Part shown: positions 47,843 through 60,897 of the stretch, piece by piece | Position numbering within the stretch: the stretch's first letter is position 1 | Layout: each line of letters opens with the position of its first letter | Origin: Escherichia phage vB_ESM-pEJ01 | Sequence record: OP114734.1 | Length of the DNA stretch: 64,000 nucleotides | Direction: 5' to 3' (one strand) | Notes under the pieces: model-generated | What the model was told of the DNA's origin: nothing | The model's input: only the letters and a program-made list of their open reading frames with translations | The model's database searches: none | Made by a program: the position numbers and the translations under genes

Positions 47843-48241
47843 TTAAGACAGTCGAGTGAGTTTATAAATTGTTTTAAAACATAGAGCTTTGATATCGTCT
47901 AAAACGCTCTGTAACGAGCTATCAACATCATTATAAATCTCACTAGCCATTTGCGTTAACTCTTGCAAATAGGCAATTTCGCTAATCTCCTTGCGGACGA
48001 CCAACGTTGGCTGATAACGACCAGTGATCCCAATATTGGTTTCAGTGAAATCATCAACCAATTCTTGCATTTCAAGATAGAACTCTTCTAGAGCCTTATG
48101 TTTTGCATAAGATCCAGGACCAGTTACCCCAAAATGCGCAGAATGCATATAAGTAACACTCATCAGACATTCACCGATAAAGCGGTCAACTTTATTATCT
48201 TTTCCCTCTTCGGACGTCTTTCGAAAATCACTGAATTTCAT
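47843..48241 (-). CDS. possible ferritin/Dps-like four-helix-bundle protein (about 132 aa)
   Basis: MSVTYMHSAHFGVTGPGSYAKHKALEEFYLEMQELVDDFTE loosely resembles Dps HWNVxG...HE motif; start at ATG 48241 (track ORF begins 48340). Confidence 0.35.
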   Translation of the reverse strand: MKFSDFRKTSEEGKDNKVDRFIGECLMSVTYMHSAHFGVTGPGSYAKHKALEEFYLEMQELVDDFTETNIGITGRYQPTLVVRKEISEIAYLQELTQMASEIYNDVDSSLQSVLDDIKALCFKTIYKLTRLS

Positions 48242-48530
48242 GTTCTCGATTCTCCATATTATGCAACATAACAAACTGTTGTGCGGCATATTCCCCCATA
48301 ATAAAACACTGCTTAGAATCCATACATTTACTACGAGCATACATCTTCATAATATGGGCATGAAATTTCTGGCTGGTTTCAATGGAAGGAGATATTTTGT
48401 TTACATATACTATCATTGCACCGTCGAAATAATCAGTAAAGTCACCAGTTGGATCATATTGATCAGCACTGACACTTCCGACCGCAGTCAAGCATATTGC
48501 CGCTGTTAGAGTTTTACGAATAAATGACAT
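48228..48530 (-). CDS. secreted/periplasmic protein with signal peptide
   Basis: N-terminal MSFIRKTLTAAICLTAVGSVSA signal-peptide-like; TATAAATA late-promoter-like motif (rc about 48568-48577) 40 nt upstream. Confidence 0.5.
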   Translation of the reverse strand: MSFIRKTLTAAICLTAVGSVSADQYDPTGDFTDYFDGAMIVYVNKISPSIETSQKFHAHIMKMYARSKCMDSKQCFIMGEYAAQQFVMLHNMENREHEIQ

Positions 48531-48598
48531 AAGTCATTCCCCCAGATTAAAAATATTCAGTTATATTTATAATCTGGGGCTTTATTTATGATTAACTC

Positions 48599-49723: not shown

Positions 49724-49926
49724 TTACATTTAGGGCAATGCGGTTCTTTAATATAATACCCGTCTGTCTTTGGAACACTAACAGGAGCGGTTTTTATATT
49801 GTATTCGGTGAAACAACGAAAACAAGTTACGTTTTCTACAGACTGACGTTTCACCCAATAACCGGAATAGAGGTCATTTTTATTTGTCATATTCCACCAC
49901 CACAATGTTAATGTCTGGAGTAGCAA
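49696..49926 (-). CDS. zinc-ribbon small protein (76 aa)
   Basis: CFRCF...CPKCKC. Confidence 0.45.
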   Translation of the reverse strand: MLLQTLTLWWWNMTNKNDLYSGYWVKRQSVENVTCFRCFTEYNIKTAPVSVPKTDGYYIKEPHCPKCKCRLYWSHL

Positions 49927-50335
49927 TATTAATGATTTCTTCTACACATTCCAACTCAAGGCCACCGATACCGCAACCGATTTTAGGGATATAGAAAGGC
50001 TGTATAGCACCTTCAAAAACATCATTGAGAGTCTCAAATCCTTTCAGGATAGCACCATATTCAGCATTTGGACCCGGTCGGAATTGGGTATAGAGATTCA
50101 CCCCGCACCAGTTATAACCATTAACTTGATGCGTCCAGACACTAAACCCACCCAACTTTTCTACCTTACCGCGAGAAGTTTGCTTGTCAATCTCTAACGC
50201 TTGCGGGAACTCTTTCGCGATATCCGCAGCAATACCAGCGCCCATAGTATGAAAACAATTACAACCATGAATTAAATGACCGTTTCCTTGTTTAAACAGG
50301 GCGATGAGATCGCCCTTTACAGTATCAATAATCAT
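49880..50335 (-). CDS. Macro domain protein (ADP-ribose binding / ADP-ribosyl hydrolase-like)
   Basis: IHGCNCFHTMGAGIAADIAKEF and IPKIGCGIGGLELECV match the two conserved glycine-rich macrodomain motifs; 151 aa. Confidence 0.6.
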   Translation of the reverse strand: MIIDTVKGDLIALFKQGNGHLIHGCNCFHTMGAGIAADIAKEFPQALEIDKQTSRGKVEKLGGFSVWTHQVNGYNWCGVNLYTQFRPGPNAEYGAILKGFETLNDVFEGAIQPFYIPKIGCGIGGLELECVEEIINIATPDINIVVVEYDK

Positions 50336-50350
50336 AATATAAACCTCTCA

Positions 50351-50710
50351 TTAGTCACGGGAAGACAACCCAGCCATAAAACGGCTTAACAGTGTGTCGC
50401 GATAAGCAAAGCATAATTGCTTATCAGGGGCAGTATCACACAGGTTACGTTTTGTTTTAGCAAAGCTGGCAATACTCAGATCCCACGCTCGATTTTTTCG
50501 TTTTTCGTCTCGACCTTGTTTGTATGCTTCATCAAGTTCGAGCGCGATAAAATCACTACACATGTTATCATCATCACAGAAAGTTTTAATGATCTTTTTG
50601 TTGATCTCAAATCCTTTGTATTCGAACTTTGGATAAGGGCGCTCATTACTAGCAAGCGAACCAGCAGAGAACATCATAACAATCATAGCAATTATTGTCA
50701 ACTTTTTCAT
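50351..50710 (-). CDS. secreted protein with signal peptide (119 aa)
   Basis: MKKLTIIAMIVMMFSAGSLASN signal-peptide-like; 4 Cys. Confidence 0.5.
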   Translation of the reverse strand: MKKLTIIAMIVMMFSAGSLASNERPYPKFEYKGFEINKKIIKTFCDDDNMCSDFIALELDEAYKQGRDEKRKNRAWDLSIASFAKTKRNLCDTAPDKQLCFAYRDTLLSRFMAGLSSRD

Positions 50711-50717
50711 ATATTCC

Positions 50718-51308
50718 TCAATAGCGTTTAGTCTTAAGAATGCCTTTACTCTTTAGATGGTTAGCCTTTTTTAGTACGTCATCAGCATAACCTAATCCGG
50801 CTTTATAGTTCCATCCAGCATTGTAAGAAGCTAGCGCGAGTCGGATATTACCGTTTCGAACATCCAGCCAGTATGCTAACTCATCCATCGCGTAGAATGC
50901 AGAAACCTCGCGATTCATGATAAAGTTGATAGTCTGGCGATCACTCATTTTAACACCGAGCTTTGCATTTTTCGCTTTCACCGTTTTAAGGTAATTTTGA
51001 AACAATCCATAAGCATGATGATTTTTCTTTGGTGCTAAGTTTGCACCCGCGCTTGATTCTTGCCATGCGATACCCGCCAGGATGTGGCCTAAACCCTTTC
51101 CGTTATAGCGAATATTCGGATGGTCCTTTTTCAACTTACCGCTTTTCTCGAATTGCTCGCCGTATTGATAGGCGAAATGTAAATTATCTAGTTGGTGTGC
51201 TGTAAAGTTGTCTATCGGCGCTTTTTTGATCGGTGCGCTAGTCGATGCGTGTGTAGCACCAACGGCTAGTGACAGACTCAATACTATCGCTTTTAGAACT
51301 TTTAACAT
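50718..51308 (-). CDS. secreted lytic transglycosylase (SLT domain) with signal peptide
   Basis: Signal peptide MLKVLKAIVLSLSLAVGATHA; SLT catalytic region GIAWQESSAG...YGLFQ. Confidence 0.5.
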   Translation of the reverse strand: MLKVLKAIVLSLSLAVGATHASTSAPIKKAPIDNFTAHQLDNLHFAYQYGEQFEKSGKLKKDHPNIRYNGKGLGHILAGIAWQESSAGANLAPKKNHHAYGLFQNYLKTVKAKNAKLGVKMSDRQTINFIMNREVSAFYAMDELAYWLDVRNGNIRLALASYNAGWNYKAGLGYADDVLKKANHLKSKGILKTKRY

Positions 51309-51393
51309 TAATTTCTCCTGTTTGGCTTAACTTTCTGATTCCATAATATAGCCCTATCACCAGAAAGTCAAGCATTAATTTAACCAATTTCCA

Positions 51394-51816
51394 TTATTGG
51401 TCTACCTTCAAAACAACCGCCGACATTTTACCCGCCAGTCGTTTTGGATTCTCTATAATCATTCGGCAGCATAGACCGTGATATGGCTTACCCTCTTCGA
51501 TTAGATCTACTGTCATCCCGATCCACATGTTACCATCAGTAATTTCTAATCGATTAGGTCGGTCTTCCATTTTCAGGAAGTCGAAGATCTCCGGCAAACG
51601 AGTTTCTATCTTATTGAATAGTTCCATTGTCTTATGTTCATCGATATGACGATCGGTTAGACGGTCGATCATATGCGGACTAAAGCGAATGAAAATATAC
51701 TCACCGTAACCATCATTCAAGCACTTTTCTTTGATCTGCGCATTGGTTTTGCGCATTTCGGTTTCGAAGAATCTACGCAGCTTACTACGGCGAACATGTA
51801 CGTTAATTGTTTCCAT
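51394..51816 (-). CDS. regB: RegB endoribonuclease
   Basis: INVHVRRSKLRRFFE...NRLEITDGNMWIGMTV...CRMII resembles remembered T4 RegB; start at ATG 51816 (AAGGA SD). Confidence 0.8.
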   Translation of the reverse strand: METINVHVRRSKLRRFFETEMRKTNAQIKEKCLNDGYGEYIFIRFSPHMIDRLTDRHIDEHKTMELFNKIETRLPEIFDFLKMEDRPNRLEITDGNMWIGMTVDLIEEGKPYHGLCCRMIIENPKRLAGKMSAVVLKVDQ

Positions 51817-51820
51817 TTTA

Positions 51821-52156
51821 TTATCCTTTCTTAAACAAATTGCGAAGCCAGTATACAAACGGGATTTCTTTAAACTTGAATTTCTCTATAGTTAATTCTT
51901 TAGTAGCAAGATGAATACCATAAGCATCATGTGTCACGATATGCCATTTTCTATAGTCCAAATGTGAACAACCGTCTGGATCTAGGTTAATAAGAGTTTC
52001 TCGCTCACTAGGATTATTTTTCCACAATTTTGTAATAGGATCGCACATAATTCGACCTAGCGTACCATGAATAATCTCACAACGGTAAAGTTTTCCAGCA
52101 GTGAGATAGGCGCACCCGTCATAGTCGGTATAAACAAACACTTCTTTAACACTCAT
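51821..52156 (-). CDS. small paralog family protein (member 1 of 3)
   Basis: DPDGCSHLDYRKWHIV motif shared with next two ORFs; start at ATG 52156 (AAGGAG SD, promoter upstream). Confidence 0.5.
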   Translation of the reverse strand: MSVKEVFVYTDYDGCAYLTAGKLYRCEIIHGTLGRIMCDPITKLWKNNPSERETLINLDPDGCSHLDYRKWHIVTHDAYGIHLATKELTIEKFKFKEIPFVYWLRNLFKKG

Positions 52157-52184
52157 TTTAATACTCCTTTGTTTCGATGGGGGT

Positions 52185-52213
52185 ATATTACTACCCCCGT
52201 TTTGTTGTGTCAA
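52185..52213 (-). promoter_or_regulatory. sigma70-type early promoter (-35 TTGACA rc 52208-52213; -10 TAATAT; IR gggggta/taccccc)
   Basis: 17-nt spacer; IR 52180-52199. Confidence 0.45.
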
Positions 52214-52474
52214 CTACTTTTTCAAGATTTTTTTAATTGCGTTCCAAAGACCTTTATTCTCAGGTTGTTTTGGTTCTTCGATTAGTGTCCATGTTCGACC
52301 GTCTAAGTGTGCACAATTTTTAAGACAAATAAAAATCTGGTGTCCCTTATCATCACGGATATAACCACTATTCGCAAATCTTTCATGTGGTGTATATTCA
52401 TACAGTGTATTTGGTGTAATATACTTGCGGTTACTATAAGGTGTCATCACATACATCATGGTACTAACTCCCAT
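52214..52474 (-). CDS. small paralog family protein (member 2 of 3)
   Basis: YEYTPHERFANSGYIRDDKGHQIFICLKNCAHLDGRTWTL; start uncertain. Confidence 0.45.
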   Translation of the reverse strand: MGVSTMMYVMTPYSNRKYITPNTLYEYTPHERFANSGYIRDDKGHQIFICLKNCAHLDGRTWTLIEEPKQPENKGLWNAIKKILKK

Positions 52475-52650
52475 TTATCACCGCGAAGATGAGAACATCC
52501 ACCATCAAGAAGTATCGTAATACGATAACCTATATCATCTTTGATGTAACCGATTGTCGGTGGATTTTCGTCGTCTCGTGTCGGGGTAAAATCATACATC
52601 TTTCCGGGCGTAATATCTTGTCCTTTATTGCTATTGGTATAAACTTTCAT
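52456..52650 (-). CDS. small paralog family protein (member 3 of 3)
   Basis: YDFTPTRDDENPPTIGYIKDDIGYRITILLDGGCSHLRGDKWEL. Confidence 0.45.
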   Translation of the reverse strand: MKVYTNSNKGQDITPGKMYDFTPTRDDENPPTIGYIKDDIGYRITILLDGGCSHLRGDKWELVP

Positions 52651-52671
52651 TTTCTTAATCTCCTATATTAA

Positions 52672-53370
52672 CTAACCACGGGTATAGTGTTCCAGAACAA
52701 CTGTCAGATGAATATATTCTAATAGATCTTTCCAAAAGTCAACATCTGGTTCTTCCGGCATACCGTTTTTCTTTGCCTCTTCACGCGCGAGTTTAACACG
52801 TTCGTAGAGATCTTTCAATTCTTCCCGCACATTATCAAAGGTTCTTTCTCCTAACTTACACGCTAAAATAGAAGAACGTCGCGCGAGCGGGAATTGTAGA
52901 TCACCTGTCTGATAGATTTCAAGTAGCTGATAACCAACACGCAGAGCATGAGAAAGATCTTTCCAGTTACTGAAATACTTTTCAGATTTGGCTACCTGTT
53001 TCTTGAGATAACCAGACAAACCCCACATCCCAACATGATAGAATTTATCGCGATGTGTTCGGATGTATTCCCATTCTCTGGAGGATTCAATCAACATGTT
53101 ACTAGGCGCGTGCACCATGTCAATAGCGCCGATATCACCTTTACATGCCAGATTGATAAACCGTTTTAGACTAAACATATTAACGTCAATATCGTCTTTG
53201 GTGTTCTTGATACCTTGACCGCTAGTGCTTTGGTCATAGTGTTCTTTCATCGATCCTAAGATAATTTCTTTCGCAGTCGGAACAAAGATACCACGATAAT
53301 CTTTATCTGAATTTTCAGTATCAAGGCCGTATAAGTGAGATCCGAAGACCATTTTAACCATTGTATGCAT
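52672..53370 (-). CDS. minimal nucleotidyltransferase (Pol-beta superfamily fold)
   Basis: hG[GS]-x(n)-DhD signature FGSHLYGLDTENSDKDY near N-terminus; 232 aa with helical C-terminal half. Confidence 0.5.
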   Translation of the reverse strand: MHTMVKMVFGSHLYGLDTENSDKDYRGIFVPTAKEIILGSMKEHYDQSTSGQGIKNTKDDIDVNMFSLKRFINLACKGDIGAIDMVHAPSNMLIESSREWEYIRTHRDKFYHVGMWGLSGYLKKQVAKSEKYFSNWKDLSHALRVGYQLLEIYQTGDLQFPLARRSSILACKLGERTFDNVREELKDLYERVKLAREEAKKNGMPEEPDVDFWKDLLEYIHLTVVLEHYTRG

Positions 53371-53388
53371 AATTAAACCCTCAGTTGA

Positions 53389-53982
53389 TTAAACGTATTC
53401 AGCAACAACATTATGTTTAAAATTACCGCTCCTTTTTGGATTTGGATTTTTCAATCGACTATGTATTAAATTTTTGTTGTATCCGGTTGCTTTAGACGCT
53501 TCGCCAATACTTTGATAAACAACACCATTAACACGAATCGGACGAGACTTATTAAACAGTTTATTCAATCCGGCATCATATGCATGGTTTTGGTTTTCTT
53601 GCCTCGTTGCGATCTCAAGATTCCAAACACAATTACAAGATTTTACCCCACTTTTATGATTAATTTCAAGACCTTCACAATCACCTATAAAGTGTTCAGC
53701 AACTAGTCTATGAATATAGCGATATTTCTTACTTTCCCCATCATGCAAGCATACATTATAATAACCATCACCAGCGCGTTTAGGTCGGAGTAGTTTACCT
53801 TTAACACGTTTTATAGTAGGGAACTCACCAAATTGATTTCTCTGGATAAACGGAATCTCGCGGTCTAATGAACGGATTCGACCATAGTTAGACACTTGAT
53901 AAAAACTTTCATATCCTTTAATTGGCTTCCATATCTCAGGGATTTCTACACCATCAATAACAACAAGTTTAAATTCTTCCAT
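53389..53982 (-). CDS. HNH homing endonuclease (NUMOD4-like N-terminus plus HNH)
   Basis: IKGYESFYQVSNYGRIRS (NUMOD4-like); YIHRLVAEHFIG...INHKSGVKSCNCVWNLEIATRQENQNH (HNH). Confidence 0.75.
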   Translation of the reverse strand: MEEFKLVVIDGVEIPEIWKPIKGYESFYQVSNYGRIRSLDREIPFIQRNQFGEFPTIKRVKGKLLRPKRAGDGYYNVCLHDGESKKYRYIHRLVAEHFIGDCEGLEINHKSGVKSCNCVWNLEIATRQENQNHAYDAGLNKLFNKSRPIRVNGVVYQSIGEASKATGYNKNLIHSRLKNPNPKRSGNFKHNVVAEYV

Positions 53983-54001
53983 ATTTCACCTCATAAAAAT
54001 A

Positions 54002-54025
54002 AAGCCAACCCTTTCGGATTGGCTT
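54002..54025 (-). terminator. rho-independent terminator 3' of GrcA-like gene
   Basis: rc hairpin aagccaatccgaaagggttggctt followed by UAUUUUUAU. Confidence 0.45.
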
Positions 54026-54030
54026 GTTGA

Positions 54031-54444
54031 TTACATAGATTCCGTAAAGGTACGGGTGATAATATCAAGTTGTTGTTCGCGTGTCAAGGCGTTGAAGCGG
54101 GTAGCATAACCACTGATTCGAATTGTAAGCTGCGGGTACTTCTCAGGATGTTCAACCGCATCAAGAAGAGTCTCCCGACGCAGTACATTCGCGTTGAGAT
54201 GATGACCCGCGTTACTATTTACCCCGTTATCAATTGCTAAAGGACGGAAGCTAGTTGTGTGCAGTTCCAGCGAATCGACGTCTTCTGCGGTGATCACATG
54301 ATCTTCTGCGAAAGTTTTACTAACAATTACTTTAGCGCCGATCAGTGCTTTCGGTTCGGATACCAGAATCATAGGCGCGAAATGTCCACCGATAATAGTA
54401 CCTTTATGCTCACCTTTCATGATTTGAATTGCTTTAAATTCCAT
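54031..54444 (-). CDS. GrcA/YfiD-like autonomous glycyl radical cofactor protein
   Basis: C-terminal [58 protein letters not shown] closely matches remembered E. coli GrcA incl. glycyl-radical RxSGY motif. Confidence 0.7.
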
Positions 54445-54579
54445 AATTCACCTCTTATAGATCAGGACGTTCGTCATTAATTTTACCAACCAAAACCCCA
54501 TAGAGTTTATCAGGTTGGACTTTACGATTCTTATTGATTGTAGCACGGAATCGACGAGCCACGCTATCTTTATTTTTCA

Positions 54580-55071
54580 TTAGTTGATACCTAAGCCAAT
54601 GAAAATAGGTTGGTCTTCTACATTACCCATCCCAACACTAAGTCGATTCAATTCTAAAAACTGCAATACGCTGTCAGTAAATCCGCGCATGGTAGTATCT
54701 AGGATAAAAATTGTTTTGTCAAGACTACGACCTCGCCATGTGATCGGATTCAGGAAAGTTCGGATAGACGTACAATCTACATTTGAAATATTTACATTTT
54801 CACCGCGACCGCGATCTCGGATCGTTTTGGCATGTTCTCGCGTCGTTGAAACGATAAAGACACTATAGCCCTTTCGCGTATAATGGTCATATAACTTGAT
54901 TGTAGCGTCTGTATGCCCTGTCTGACGGCCTAAATTGATTGAGACAATGGAATCTAGGTCATCAGCAAAATTGCGTCGCTTACGGCGTTCTATGATGCCA
55001 TTTACGGCAGAAATACACGCAGCATAAATCAAATCTTTACTTTCTAATTCTAAATCAATGTCAATATTCAT
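54580..55071 (-). CDS. hypothetical protein (163 aa)
   Basis: ORF track. Confidence 0.5.
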   Translation of the reverse strand: MNIDIDLELESKDLIYAACISAVNGIIERRKRRNFADDLDSIVSINLGRQTGHTDATIKLYDHYTRKGYSVFIVSTTREHAKTIRDRGRGENVNISNVDCTSIRTFLNPITWRGRSLDKTIFILDTTMRGFTDSVLQFLELNRLSVGMGNVEDQPIFIGLGIN

Positions 55072-55133
55072 GGTAAAGTCTCCAGTGAACGGGGAGAGAT
55101 CCTTAGATTGTCTCCCCGTTGATGGTTAATATT

Positions 55134-55708
55134 TTATTTTGGATCTGGGAAATTCAATAGAGCATATTCTCCATAAAATTTCCTAGCTGCATTATCATAA
55201 GCGATTGCAGCTTCGATTTCTGTGTCATATTGTCCAAGAACATGTCTTTGTAGGTTGACCATTATACTAGCTCTCCATTTCTTACGCAAATCCTTCCTGT
55301 TACACTTACTAACACCCTTATACACACTAGAAAACTTTTAGACTTCTTCTTTCTATTATGTTGATTTTGCGCGTCGGTTGCCTCCATAAGATTTGGAGGA
55401 TTGTTATTAGCAGGATTACCGTCAATATGATCAATTAATCTAACTTGCGTCCCATGTTCTAGAAACCAAACAACCCTATGCACGAATAGATGAACTCTAG
55501 GAAGACCGTCATCTCTACTATGCCAAAATCTAAGATGACCATCTTTATTTGTTCTGACTTTAACTAAATCGCCGTGTTTATATCTACTCCCTAATGGTCG
55601 TCCTTTGATAGCTTTACTATCGACTCTATAATATAAGATACCCTCTATATGAGCATATCTAAGTTTTATCTCGTTTTGTAGGGATTCATCCCAATATTTA
55701 AAAGCCAT
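55134..55708 (-). pseudogene. HNH-AP2 homing endonuclease split by a frameshift at an A-run (or sequencing error)
   Basis: 55262..55708 carries HNH (LFVHRVVWFLEHGTQVRLIDHIDGNPANNNPPNL); AP2 domain (YKGVSKCNRKD...AAIAYDNAARKFYGEYA) continues in -1 frame as ORF 55134..55325; shift near aaaag at about 55318-55326. Confidence 0.55.
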
Positions 55709-55753
55709 TTTATAATCCTCACAAAGCCAGCGATTAAGCTGGCTTTATTTTAG

Positions 55754-56143
55754 TTATACCGGGTCTGGATATACCTTTTTATCGAGTTCCATATGCGGTC
55801 CGTCTTTAAAAGTAACCCAATCAACACCGCAGATAACAGGAACACCCAATTCTCGACCAGCTTGTTTAAATGCATCAGCGATCATGCGGTAATATTTCAT
55901 GTTCCATGTATCCTTATCTTTCGGATACGCTACAACGTCAACCGCGAAACCGTGAAGATGACGAGATTTCATAGTCTTAGATTTACCTTCCGCAACATAT
56001 TTCTTTTGCGTTTCTAGACTACGCACACCTTCCGTAATACCAAAATCGACCGGAGTCAGTTCTAATGCACGATGAACGACTTTTACCAGGTCTGGATGTA
56101 CACCAACAAGCCGATCTTTGCTTCTTTGAGATAATTTAAACAT
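55754..56143 (-). CDS. peptidase M15-like cell-wall hydrolase (candidate endolysin)
   Basis: Zn-binding signature SRHLHGFAVDV and later GPHMELD; 129 aa, no signal peptide. Confidence 0.5.
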   Translation of the reverse strand: MFKLSQRSKDRLVGVHPDLVKVVHRALELTPVDFGITEGVRSLETQKKYVAEGKSKTMKSRHLHGFAVDVVAYPKDKDTWNMKYYRMIADAFKQAGRELGVPVICGVDWVTFKDGPHMELDKKVYPDPV

Positions 56144-56171
56144 TATTCACCCCCTTTGTGAGTGATAATAT

Positions 56172-56363
56172 TTAGATTCCTGTGATCCTGCATAGAGTTC
56201 TTGTATTAGCACCAATCAGGATCGCATTAACAGCAACCATTCCCCAATCAACCCACGGATCATTATAAATGCTAAATCCGTTTGCAAGACCAAATACAAG
56301 CATTCCGGTACACATACTCAGAGCAATAATCAACATCACGGTAAAACCAAATGCAAATCTCAT
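56172..56363 (-). CDS. small membrane protein (63 aa)
   Basis: Two hydrophobic helices. Confidence 0.45.
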   Translation of the reverse strand: MRFAFGFTVMLIIALSMCTGMLVFGLANGFSIYNDPWVDWGMVAVNAILIGANTRTLCRITGI

Positions 56364-56364
56364 A

Positions 56365-56631
56365 TTATTTTCCTTTTCTCTGTTTACGTTTATAAAAGTA
56401 ATACATTACCTCATCTCGTCCGGTGACCCAACATGCTAGGGCGGTAAACAGGTTTACAATTCCCAACACACCTACGGATGCGGCGCTATCAACAGACATA
56501 GGAACAGTAAAGGCCATAGCTAACATAGCAACGCCACAAATGACATTAAGCACCATTATAATAAGACCGAAGAAAACCATTGTCAATCCTCCCAAATAAG
56601 AAAACCAACAATCACGCCAGTGATAAGACAT
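56365..56631 (-). CDS. small membrane protein (88 aa)
   Basis: Hydrophobic helices; basic C-terminus. Confidence 0.45.
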   Translation of the reverse strand: MSYHWRDCWFSYLGGLTMVFFGLIIMVLNVICGVAMLAMAFTVPMSVDSAASVGVLGIVNLFTALACWVTGRDEVMYYFYKRKQRKGK

Positions 56632-56774
56632 GATGCGCCGCTAATAAGACAACCCGCGCCAAGTGATTCCCACCAGATCAGAGAAGCGACAATAACACAG
56701 AATCCCCATACTACCGCAATCACAACATAGGCAAGGGTCGCCCAAAACATATATTTGTTCATAATAAATCCCAT
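56583..56774 (-). CDS. small membrane protein (63 aa)
   Basis: Two hydrophobic helices. Confidence 0.45.
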   Translation of the reverse strand: MGFIMNKYMFWATLAYVVIAVVWGFCVIVASLIWWESLGAGCLISGASCLITGVIVGFLIWED

Positions 56775-56947
56775 TCACCAAACAAATAAGAAAAAAGCCA
56801 TATCAACAGAAACGAGGCAATTGATCCGGCAAGCAAAATGATATTAGAGAATCCGCCGTCTATCCAGGCGACAAAACAGAATACGCCAGTATAGAAGCAT
56901 AAACCCAGTACAAAGCATACTATAAGCAACCATAGACAAAACGCCAT
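56759..56947 (-). CDS. small membrane protein (62 aa)
   Basis: Two hydrophobic helices. Confidence 0.45.
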   Translation of the reverse strand: MAFCLWLLIVCFVLGLCFYTGVFCFVAWIDGGFSNIILLAGSIASFLLIWLFSYLFGEWDLL

Positions 56948-57171
56948 AGAAAGCCCTCCAGTGAGCTAATTTAGTGCGGGTAGTACATTACCCTACCCGT
57001 ATTGTTAATCATCGCAGAGCTTCTTCTAGCGCGATCCAAAACCATCCACAAACAACGCCCATACAGACAGCTACAAGAAGATTCATTCTCTCTTTAGGGA
57101 TCATTGCAATCATAACAACAACCATACAGAAAGCCACATTACCATTGAAGTTAACATTTGTTCAACCATTA

Positions 57172-57784: not shown

Positions 57785-57985
57785 CTAAAATTTGTTAACG
57801 ACGAATTGCATAATTAGACTAATCACAAACATTGCAAACCAAGTATAAATGCAACAGATAAAAGCTACATACAATTCAATCTGGTCAGAGAATACACCGG
57901 GTAAAAGCATTAGCAAAATAACAACAGTAAAGACGCTAGCGATACCCGCAACAAAACCAATATCATTTTTACTAATCGTCATCAA
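57785..57985 (-). CDS. small membrane protein (66 aa)
   Basis: Two hydrophobic helices. Confidence 0.45.
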   Translation of the reverse strand: MMTISKNDIGFVAGIASVFTVVILLMLLPGVFSDQIELYVAFICCIYTWFAMFVISLIMQFVVNKF

Positions 57986-58191
57986 GTCACCGTTTTGTAA
58001 AGAAACACAATAAAATCCAAGACAAGAAAGACAGTGTAAATGATCATCGTCAAGACAGTAAACACTGTCAAATTTTCATCGTTAGTTAATTCATAGTCGC
58101 CCATCCATACAATCACAAGATATAGCATTGAAAGAATGGAAGCACCTACGAAGTTAAAAAACATATTCTTGAGCGTCATATTAACAACCAT
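57982..58191 (-). CDS. small membrane protein (69 aa)
   Basis: Two hydrophobic helices. Confidence 0.45.
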   Translation of the reverse strand: MVVNMTLKNMFFNFVGASILSMLYLVIVWMGDYELTNDENLTVFTVLTMIIYTVFLVLDFIVFLYKTVT

Positions 58192-58363
58192 CGCGGCTTA
58201 AGTCAACAGCAATTGCATACAGCATAATGAATATGCTAGCAGATCCGAGAATCAATACACCCTCACATTTTGAAACTCGCTCATCAAAATGTAACATTAT
58301 CCATCCGAGGATGTTAAAGGCGCAGACCGCGCCTATGTTCGCTAACCAATTAATCTTTTTCAT
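58181..58363 (-). CDS. small membrane protein (60 aa)
   Basis: Hydrophobic helices. Confidence 0.45.
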   Translation of the reverse strand: MKKINWLANIGAVCAFNILGWIMLHFDERVSKCEGVLILGSASIFIMLYAIAVDLSRDGC

Positions 58364-59932: not shown

Positions 59933-60151
59933 TTATTTATATCGCTTTCTCTCGCGACGTTTTTGATCTTCTTCCTTGATAGAGTTAAACGCATCAAAAA
60001 GACACATGACACTGATAATGAACATAACCGTATTTTCTACGATATCCCACGGCTTCGCATCAGTACAGATCCCCCAAACGGTAAGAAATGCAAATAGTGC
60101 AGAAGAGATCACAAGCATGATACTTGCTAAGATATAAAAAGTCATTTTCAT
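59933..60151 (-). CDS. small membrane protein (72 aa)
   Basis: Hydrophobic helices; basic C-terminus. Confidence 0.45.
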   Translation of the reverse strand: MKMTFYILASIMLVISSALFAFLTVWGICTDAKPWDIVENTVMFIISVMCLFDAFNSIKEEDQKRRERKRYK

Positions 60152-60342
60152 GGTTTTACCTCAATTCTTCGATATTCATCACACATCCACGCAGTAAGCA
60201 AGAATCCCAGCACATAAGCAACAAAATACGTTAATGCTTCTTCTGGTTTCGTGCTATGTATCATCAGTAAACCAGCGAGAACGGTCTTAACAATTACATT
60301 TAAAATAACTAGCCACGCAAATAATTTCATCGTTTGCCCCAT
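60148..60342 (-). CDS. small membrane protein (64 aa)
   Basis: Hydrophobic helices. Confidence 0.45.
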   Translation of the reverse strand: MGQTMKLFAWLVILNVIVKTVLAGLLMIHSTKPEEALTYFVAYVLGFLLTAWMCDEYRRIEVKP

Positions 60343-60566
60343 TTCGGTCGAGTCTTTTCAAACTTATACATTCCGTAACAATCTCGAATCATCCACGTAA
60401 CAAGAGCACCAGTCAACACAGACAATACACAGAAGAAGTAAAACGGTCCGGTTGCATTATCAACATGAGCAAGCCATGTAAAGAAAACACATGCAAGGAA
60501 CGTGAAGAACATCATAAAGCACAAGAAAGCAAAATATTTTATACTACTCATAGCGCCACCATACAA
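60327..60566 (-). CDS. small membrane protein (79 aa)
   Basis: Hydrophobic helices. Confidence 0.45.
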   Translation of the reverse strand: MYGGAMSSIKYFAFLCFMMFFTFLACVFFTWLAHVDNATGPFYFFCVLSVLTGALVTWMIRDCYGMYKFEKTRPKWGKR

Positions 60567-60654
60567 CAGATCATAAGAAACCCCAACGCAATAAGAATTG
60601 CGTCAAATTTAGTGAACTCAGGTCCACCTATCAACATCATTCGTTCTATTTCGT

Positions 60655-60897
60655 TCATAGCGTACAAAGCCATTTAAAAGCACCACATAAAGCGAGCAGA
60701 ATACTAGGTATAAACGAGATCATAACAAGTTTGCAAAAATCATCTAAGGTAACGCCGGAATAGCTACCTACTGTAACAACACCGATCATCAGACACAGAA
60801 AGAAAACAAATGCAACCAGAAACAAAGTATTGCTAAACAGTTTAGTGATCATTAGACACCCCACGACGATCAATTTCAAAAACTTTTTTACCATCAA
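60655..60897 (-). CDS. small membrane protein (start uncertain)
   Basis: Hydrophobic helices; overlaps upstream ORF by 56 nt. Confidence 0.4.
   Translation of the reverse strand: MMVKKFLKLIVVGCLMITKLFSNTLFLVAFVFFLCLMIGVVTVGSYSGVTLDDFCKLVMISFIPSILLALCGAFKWLCTL

Follow-up and report, generated by a model that had tools for sequence, protein, structure and literature searches.

This analysis concerns three genes in a stretch of 64,000 nucleotides (nt) of Escherichia phage vB_ESM-pEJ01 (record OP114734.1; the whole stretch is called the window below): one for an M15-type peptidase, one for a protein with an SLT domain and one for a small, apparently secreted protein. We consider it very likely that the region, taken as a whole, holds two unrelated and largely known things, namely an M15 endolysin and the orthologs of the phage T4 genes vs.1 and vs. 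Our analysis established the identity and orthology of the genes, their synteny with T4, the catalytic residues, the fold and the absence of gene e. An earlier note, made from the sequence alone, had taken the three genes for one non-T4 set of cell-wall hydrolases in the place of T4 lysozyme e, and had suggested superinfection exclusion or periplasmic remodelling, and not lysis, as a possible function of the secreted transglycosylase. The three open reading frames (ORFs) do lie where that note had placed them, all on the minus strand (Table 1). Since homologs are found in 2067 (Vs.1), 333 (Vs) and 1326 (M15) phage records, they are genuine genes and not chance ORFs; NCBIfam has no match for any of the three proteins.

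Nucleotide identities of 90-99% link positions 49800-56500 of the window to 58 phage records, all of them from Krischvirus or unclassified RB49-like coliphages and including FL04, JK32, RB49 and JSE, so that the window belongs to a "pseudo-T-even" genome of the RB49/JSE type. The RB49/JSE-like relatives within Krischvirus are 96-98% identical to the window in nucleotides. Transcription is mainly leftward, and GC skew is negative throughout. In T4, the genes of this part of the genome run rI, tk, tk.1-4, vs, vs.1, regB, vs.3-vs.8, denV, ipII, ipIII, e and nudE. In JSE and the window, the order is rI, tk, three small ORFs, tk.4, vs, vs.1, regB, three small ORFs and nrdC.11, followed by a homing endonuclease gene, vs.6, vs.8, an HNH-AP2 gene, the M15 gene and many small ORFs, and finally by 55.3, dmd, 57B, 57A, 1 and 3. 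This comparison places the M15 gene between vs.8 and 57B, i.e., in the interval that holds denV-ipII-ipIII-e, and hence lysozyme e, in T4.

Both domain calls of the earlier note, M15 and SLT, hold, with scores above the respective cut-offs. The M15 protein matches Pfam Peptidase_M15_4 (PF13539) at E 4.8e-8 and 33.9 bits (cut-off 25) and phrog_465 "endolysin" at 5.5e-63, and finds the PDB entries 23ri_A (2.3e-77) and 8q2g_A (2.9e-74). Its residues 1-103 are identical to 23ri_A and differ by one substitution (F66L) from 8q2g_A, which is entered as "peptidoglycan L-alanyl-D-glutamate endopeptidase". In EndoRB49, H62, D69 and H117 are the zinc ligands, D114 is catalytic and W109 is conserved (PMC10487532); all five residues are found at the EndoRB49 positions in the window protein. 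The counterpart in phage Whisky is annotated "lys, L-alanyl-D-glutamate peptidase". The N-terminus has no hydrophobic segment (maximum Kyte-Doolittle mean 0.80), and the statement that this protein lacks a signal peptide stands. As judged from these matches, the M15 protein is a cytoplasmic, single-domain zinc L-alanoyl-D-glutamate peptidase of the M15C group and the EndoRB49/EndoT5 type.

The window protein and EndoRB49 (PDB 8q2g, 23ri) have in common their length, the active-site residues, the phage genus and the genome position, but differ in the last approximately 25 residues, which read VEWGGDWTSFKDGPHLQLPHSKYPDP in EndoRB49 and VICGVDWVTFKDGPHMELDKKVYPDPV in the window. The published enzymology was done on the former allele and thus on a protein that differs from ours in this tail (PMC8140593). 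In this part of the gene (55754-55830, minus strand, approximately 25 codons) the window agrees with JSE and Whisky, and 23ri and 8q2g carry the other version; by these sequences, two C-terminal alleles of the endolysin circulate in Krischvirus. Near-identity over residues 1-103 followed by a divergent C-terminus suggests a recombination breakpoint within the M15 gene. EndoT5 (PDB 2mxz), an ortholog of EndoRB49, is more distant, with approximately 38% identity to the M15 protein (tblastn to T5-like phages). Beyond Krischvirus, the closest relatives are endolysins of unrelated small coliphages (57-61%), followed by those of other T4-like genera (approximately 47%), a distribution which points to horizontal acquisition of the gene.

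The M15 protein gives no alignment with T4 gpe at E <= 100, and a local tblastn search of the complete JSE genome with T4 gpe found no free e-type lysozyme. In the window and in the JSE genome, gpe matches only the lysozyme domain of gp5 (JSE: 42.6% identity, E 8e-37). T4 denV, ipII, ipIII and nudE also have no counterpart in the JSE genome, which does encode a T-type holin (beside the tail-fibre genes), rI, pseT.3/pseT.2 (the T4 spanin genes) and gp5. RB49, phi-1, RB43 and RB16 were listed as having "no apparent gene e" in the review by Uzan and Miller (2010; PMC3014915). The earlier note was therefore right in putting the M15 gene where T4 has e, given its interval, its lack of similarity to e and the absence of a free e-type lysozyme in JSE: the M15 peptidase substitutes for T4 lysozyme e, a conclusion that is correct but already published. 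The two enzymes share the genome interval, a presumed role as soluble endolysin together with a T-type holin, and an analogous leader layout; T4 lysozyme e (GH24), however, is a muramidase, whereas the M15 protein is a peptidase without sequence similarity to it. In the infected cell, the M15 endolysin would cut the stem peptide of peptidoglycan once the T-type holin, encoded elsewhere, opens the inner membrane.

The leader of the M15 gene resembles that of T4 e. For the 56 nt before and across the start codon, a hairpin that covers the ribosome-binding site is predicted (-12.5 kcal/mol, z -3.83, with 0 of 200 shuffles as stable), and a late-promoter-like box, TCTAAATA, lies within it (Table 1). 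In a transcript that starts at 56163, just past this box, the structure is lost (-3.3 kcal/mol, z -0.56). The same arrangement is found in the T4 e leader, where the hairpin has a z of -4.22 but two boxes match the late consensus TATAAATA exactly, compared to one non-canonical candidate in the M15 leader. For T4 e, translation of the early transcript is cut 100-fold, and late transcripts lack the 5' strand of the hairpin (PMC3014915). In Providencia phage PSTCR6, the M15 gene is found downstream of nudE, and an exact TATAAATA runs into a 13-base-pair hairpin over the AUG (z -3.23).

The M15 leader sequence is identical in JSE, Whisky and Cognac. In the JSE genome, TCTAAATA occurs in 3 copies only, one of which lies 43 nt upstream of the distal tail-fibre gene (gp37); the exact TATAAATA precedes 8 JSE late genes at 28-45 nt spacing. 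The third JSE copy (position 144580, minus strand) is inside the gene of the gp41-helicase loader, approximately 240 nt upstream of the single-strand-binding protein gene, and might be an internal late promoter. Sigma-70-type promoter matches upstream of the M15 gene (e.g., 56586-56558 and 58769-58741) could supply early transcripts that read through into it. In such transcripts the hairpin over the ribosome-binding site and start codon would probably mask translation, and late transcripts that start just downstream of the TCTAAATA box would be unmasked, as in the T4 e scheme. We regard T4 e-type translational masking of the M15 gene as plausible and give it about an even chance.

Several observations weigh against such masking. 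The candidate box has a C at position 2, where T4 late promoters vary very little. Covariation in the M15 leader was sought and not found: all Krischvirus leaders examined are identical, and the hairpin therefore gains no covariation support. Genome-wide, TCTAAATA has an observed/expected ratio of 0.32, a depletion no stronger than that of other one-mismatch variants. In Slopekvirus KP27 and Pseudotevenvirus EC-F2, the M15 genes have an upstream terminator-like hairpin, and the ribosome-binding site is not occluded, so that the masking scheme is not general. As a separate observation, a late-box-like sequence abuts the 5' arm of this terminator-like hairpin in both phages, CATAAATA in KP27 (extract 2445-2500) and CGTAAATA in EC-F2 (extract 345-395). 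Late transcripts that start inside the arm would possibly escape termination, which by analogy would be a transcriptional counterpart of the T4 e scheme. At the other end of the window's M15 gene, directly after the stop codon, a terminator-like hairpin conserved in JSE and Whisky is the probable terminator of the M15 transcription unit. In the literature searched, we found no mention of an M15 leader hairpin that hides the ribosome-binding site together with a late-promoter-like box.

Family-1 lytic transglycosylases have as their hallmarks a catalytic Glu in an E-S motif, a G-L-(M/F)-Q motif and an (A/S)-Y-N-x-G motif. The SLT protein of the window has E84-S85, G101-LFQ and Y162-NAG, and across 22 homologs E84, S86, Y100, G101, F103, Q104, S161, Y162 and G165 are invariant, with N163 and A164 conserved in at least 90%. 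In the alignments, the catalytic residues are thus all present in this protein, as they are in the M15 protein. The match to Pfam SLT (PF01464) covers residues 76-167 at E 5.6e-6 and 26.4 bits (gathering score 21.3); the protein falls in phrog_600 at 7.9e-60, is annotated vs.1 in JSE, and shares 53% of 158 aligned residues with T4 Vs.1 (E 2e-56), within the same tk.4-vs-vs.1-regB order as in T4. By alignment and gene order, it is the ortholog of T4 Vs.1, and the view that it is a non-T4 protein has to be given up. Vs.1 homologs span Straboviridae, Ackermannviridae-like and Felixounavirus phages. Nolan et al. described the SLT match of vs.1 in 2006, in corroboration of an earlier PSI-BLAST match of the T4 protein to lysozyme (PMC1524935). 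Window and T4 Vs.1 have in common their neighbours (vs downstream and regB upstream), a signal-like N-terminus and the motifs. The window protein is longer by 15 residues at the N-terminal end of the mature part, and its gene is separated from regB by a gap with its own predicted sigma-70-type promoter (Table 1), compared to 7 nt in T4.

An AlphaFold model of Vs.1, based on an alignment that left out T4 Vs.1, has a mean predicted local distance difference test score (pLDDT) of 82.5. The top 23 Foldseek matches in the PDB comprise nothing but GH23 lytic transglycosylases, a GH23 chitinase and goose-type lysozyme, and for most of them the probability is 0.84-1.00; LtgA is among them, as are Slt, MltD and MltE with their catalytic domains. 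Two points count against reading too much into this: the values of the fold search are modest (E 0.014-1.7 and template-modelling scores of 0.33-0.50 over the 23 matches; E 0.014-0.1 and 0.4-0.5 for the better ones), and a Vs.1 family profile run against the PDB gives EtgA alone, at a non-significant E of 0.38. A search of PDB sequences with the single Vs.1 sequence returned only noise. The weak EtgA alignment does place E84 on the catalytic AWNES motif. EtgA, from enteropathogenic Escherichia coli (PDB 8urn), likewise consists of a single GH23 domain of approximately 170 residues behind a Sec signal, with the ES and YNAG motifs aligned. It is, however, an exported transglycosylase of a type III secretion system, whereas Vs.1 is phage-encoded, without a secretion apparatus, and paired with Vs.

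The N-terminus of Vs.1 has two lysines, the stretch AIVLSLSLAVGA and then THA/S, the slash marking a potential cleavage site after residue 21. In the window, both Vs.1 and Vs start with two K/R, a 10-residue hydrophobic stretch (mean Kyte-Doolittle 2.6-2.8) and a small-x-small site; every full-length Vs.1 homolog in the 22-homolog alignment starts with a signal-like segment. We infer export of both proteins, which the earlier note had called secreted, from these N-terminal features and from the fact that 22 homologs of Vs.1 and 43 of Vs conserve them. Vs.1 would accordingly be a Sec-exported, soluble periplasmic lytic transglycosylase, with both export and activity predicted. It is most likely cleaved near A21/S22, and in the periplasm it would act as a small soluble enzyme in which E84 serves as catalytic acid/base. 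We would expect it to take an accessory, non-essential part in wall remodelling rather than in host lysis.

The third gene product matches phrog_1256 "valyl tRNA synthetase modifier" at 6.3e-33, shows full-length similarity to T4 Vs (E 1e-8) and bears the name vs in the JSE annotation. By family membership and gene order it is the ortholog of T4 Vs (phrog_1256/PF26829), so that the "second secreted small protein" is no more foreign to T4 than its neighbour. The two proteins share the position beside vs.1, four cysteines and a signal-like N-terminus, but are only 27% identical. In the window protein, the N-terminus has two K/R, a hydrophobic stretch and SLA/S after residue 20. Among 43 homologs, with identities down to approximately 20%, the invariant residues are C45, C51, C91, C100, two glycines and one leucine, and a signal-like N-terminus is present in all 43. 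The model of Vs has four helices and a core pLDDT of approximately 90, with the cysteine pairs flanking the first and last helix-helix turns; a fold search with this model found no similar solved structure. By this model, Vs is a small four-helix protein; it is probably exported as well and stapled by two disulfides, for which the pairs C45-C51 and C91-C100 are predicted. In the literature searched, its signal-like N-terminus and invariant cysteines are not mentioned.

Against a periplasmic location stands the annotation of Vs as a binder of cytoplasmic valyl-tRNA synthetase. In PMC8076793, which cites Muller & Marchin, binding and modification of this enzyme are claimed for T4 Vs only. Vs could therefore be a purely cytoplasmic valyl-tRNA synthetase modifier, with an N-terminus and cysteines that have nothing to do with export and an adjacency to vs.1 that reflects gene packing. 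The family annotation and the classical biochemistry cited there support this, and the position of T4 vs as the most depleted gene in minimal medium (see below) could reflect translation or amino-acid economy. In addition, vs mutations interact genetically with host valS(ts). On the other hand, the conserved export-like features fit poorly with a cytoplasmic target: all 43 homologs keep the charge-hydrophobic-small-x-small N-terminus despite free drift of the sequence, the four cysteines are the main invariant residues, and full-length His-tagged T4 Vs from the cytoplasm is insoluble. We rate the purely cytoplasmic alternative as a serious one, with a chance only somewhat short of even.

The two genes form a close pair. 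In the window, 7 nt separate the stop codon of vs.1 from the start codon of vs; in T4 they overlap by 8 nt, and in Acinetobacter phage Acj9 and Salmonella phage STML-198 they overlap as TAATG. The sigma-70-type promoter match ahead of vs.1 is conserved in JSE and Whisky and agrees with early transcription of vs.1 and vs, two closely spaced genes that would share this early-type promoter. The pairing behind such a promoter is not mentioned in the literature searched. In a transposon study of T4, vs.1 was non-essential (46 of 52 TA sites hit), and vs was the most depleted gene in minimal medium, with a log2 fold change (log2FC) of -2.19 and an adjusted p of 0 (preprint 10.1101/2025.11.20.689424). 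In the same study, the change for vs.1 in minimal medium (log2FC -0.87, p 0.0055) was not significant after correction (adjusted p 0.155), and the insertion counts of both genes in LB were approximately ten-fold below those of their neighbours. Either a shared function of vs and vs.1 or polarity of vs.1 insertions on vs explains these data, and the latter possibility detracts from any argument for a functional pair from the parallel behaviour of the two genes. A Felixounavirus phage has a Vs.1 homolog without Vs, beside rIIB, a polynucleotide kinase gene and spanin genes.

A bolder reading is that Vs and Vs.1, coupled in translation and exported by Sec, form a periplasmic pair conserved across Straboviridae, and that the label "valyl-tRNA synthetase modifier" misses or misplaces the site of Vs action. 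We hold this reading to be doubtful. A second and smaller point would be that masking of the e kind was inherited or re-evolved by a non-homologous endolysin. If the periplasmic reading is true, the minimal-medium defect of T4 vs and the weaker effect of vs.1 would report on an envelope function and not on tRNA charging.

Alternatively, Vs.1 might be a second, Sec-delivered lysis enzyme that accumulates in the periplasm and is restrained or regulated by the co-exported Vs until lysis. The intact and invariant catalytic motifs of Vs.1, the export signals on both proteins, the tight vs.1-vs coupling kept across Straboviridae subfamilies and the similarly low counts of transposon mutants in both genes would all suit such an arrangement, as would the Felixounavirus homolog, which is annotated "putative lysin" and is encoded near spanin genes. 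However, T4 can do without vs.1, and insertions in the holin and spanin genes, by contrast, are hardly tolerated at all; the same Felixounavirus homolog occurs without Vs; and the fold of Vs matches no known inhibitor of lysozymes or transglycosylases. A lysis role for the pair is therefore improbable in our view, and accessory wall remodelling by Vs.1 is the reading we prefer.

Two further ideas fare much worse. The first is that of the earlier note, in which three genes make up a non-T4 hydrolase set that replaces e and the secreted transglycosylase serves superinfection exclusion. All three proteins do show wall-related or export features, the M15 protein is foreign to T4, with its nearest relatives outside Krischvirus among the unrelated small coliphage endolysins described above, and vs.1 has an early-type promoter ahead of it. 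Against this, vs.1 and vs are present in T4 at the same position, Vs.1 homologs are widespread (the 2067 phage records given above), and the grouping itself comes apart, with vs.1 and vs forming their own pair behind a sigma-70-type promoter match and the M15 gene transcribed separately, at a distance of 4.4 kb and with a leader and a probable terminator of its own. The suggested non-lysis role of Vs.1 agrees with the early-type promoter and with the non-essentiality of T4 vs.1, but nothing points to superinfection exclusion specifically, and no similarity of Vs.1 to known T4 exclusion proteins was seen. Orthology and synteny refute the non-T4 part, and the set as proposed is highly improbable.

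The second, equally remote idea is that the hydrophobic N-terminus of Vs.1 is a signal-arrest-release (SAR) anchor and the protein a membrane-tethered endolysin released on depolarisation: the stretch AIVLSLSLAVGA does contain Ser, Gly and Ala and is followed by the muralytic domain, but a SAR endolysin is taken to have an uncleaved, weakly hydrophobic N-terminal transmembrane segment of approximately 16-22 residues and usually a pinholin, whereas the core in Vs.1 has approximately 12 residues and leads into the cleavage motif THA/S (AHS/S in T4 Vs.1), a cytoplasmic endolysin is already present in the phage, together with a large holin that is of the T type and not a pinholin, and the promoter at vs.1 is of the early type.

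The main content of these results is known: EndoRB49 is a purified and assayed enzyme of solved structure, RB49 is listed without e, and the SLT match of vs.1 dates from 2003/2006. Published papers or deposited structures already cover both the replacement of e by M15 and the SLT match, and little in the main finding is new. The leads are elsewhere. Vs is among the oldest named T4 accessory genes and the one most needed in minimal medium, and its product has the hallmarks of an exported disulfide protein. Its gene is welded to that of a predicted periplasmic transglycosylase, which, if confirmed, would reopen the meaning of "valyl-tRNA synthetase modification". The other lead is that the endolysin has been swapped for an unrelated enzyme, yet the block on translation of early transcripts seems to have been kept or rebuilt. 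The e-like leader of the M15 gene would then seem to be an example of a regulatory architecture that outlives the gene it regulates.

Table 1. Genes and predicted regulatory elements of the region (window positions)
Feature	Position	Strand	Basis or description
M15 endolysin	55754..56143	-	129 amino acids; Pfam, PHROG and PDB matches
vs.1 ortholog, SLT protein	50718..51308	-	196 amino acids; T4 Vs.1 alignment, JSE annotation
vs ortholog	50351..50710	-	119 amino acids; phrog_1256, T4 Vs alignment, JSE annotation
Putative leader hairpin of the M15 gene	56130..56185	-	pairs the M15 Shine-Dalgarno sequence (GGGGGUGA) and AUG with the upstream arm
Late-promoter-like box TCTAAATA	56169..56176	-	in the 5' arm of the hairpin; 1 mismatch to the T4 late consensus TATAAATA
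Terminator-like hairpin	55723..55746	.	GC-rich with T run, directly after the M15 stop; 9 pairs, 5 GC
Sigma-70-type (early-type) promoter match, TTGACT-17 nt-TATTAT	51343..51371	-	10/12 consensus matches; in the 85-nt regB/vs.1 gap
regB endoribonuclease, synteny anchor with T4	51394..51858	-	Pfam REGB_T4 1.7e-48; named regB in JSE and Whisky
tk.4 macro-domain protein, synteny anchor with T4	49880..50335	-	Pfam Macro 1.3e-5; named tk.4 in JSE
rI lysis-inhibition regulator homolog	48228..48530	-	coordinate offset to JSE rI; signal-like N-terminus

Among the neighbouring genes, the rI homolog is a lysis-timing gene in the same block as the M15, vs.1 and vs genes. The gap between tk and rI has an exact TATAAATA at 48564-48571 (minus strand), with CATAAATA 12 nt upstream of it at 48583-48590 (minus strand); the only other exact TATAAATA in the window is at 59934-59941. 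The tk.4 macro-domain gene lies directly downstream of vs, and its T4 counterpart, Tk.4, has been named AdfM, an anti-DarTG2 counter-defence factor (2025 preprint 10.1101/2025.11.20.689424). The vs.6 homolog (54031-54444, minus strand) has a C-terminal glycyl-radical domain (Pfam Gly_radical, 9.3e-16), and T4 vs.6 is annotated as an autonomous glycyl radical cofactor (GrcA-like).

Two homing-endonuclease genes lie among these neighbours. Between nrdC.11 and vs.6, positions 53389-53982 (minus strand) encode a 197-residue protein with NUMOD4 and HNH_3 domains. For most Krischvirus genomes, the alignment breaks into two pieces that cover only 90-91% of 49800-56500, and at the nrdC.11/vs.6 site JSE encodes an endonuclease of 176 residues; together, this makes it seem that the mobile gene at this site varies between isolates. 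Beside the M15 gene, an HNH and AP2-like homing-endonuclease gene (55134-55708, minus strand) is split into ORFs of 148 and 63 residues by a single-base deletion relative to the intact, 191-residue JSE gene (575 compared to 576 nt, one gap). Either a sequencing error or a recently formed pseudogene is the probable explanation of the split.

Upstream of the M15 gene, tiny and strongly hydrophobic ORFs are found on the minus strand (56172-56947, 57009-57137, 57785-58363 and 59933-60897), with 42-88 residues and apparently 1-3 membrane spans each. Ten such ORFs were scanned, and each matches just its own small PHROG of unknown function. We considered the ORFs at 56172-56947 and elsewhere as holin partners of the endolysin and rejected them on these tiny PHROGs and on the presence of the T-type holin elsewhere. 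The 56-58 kb part of the window has an unusual AT skew of +0.17.

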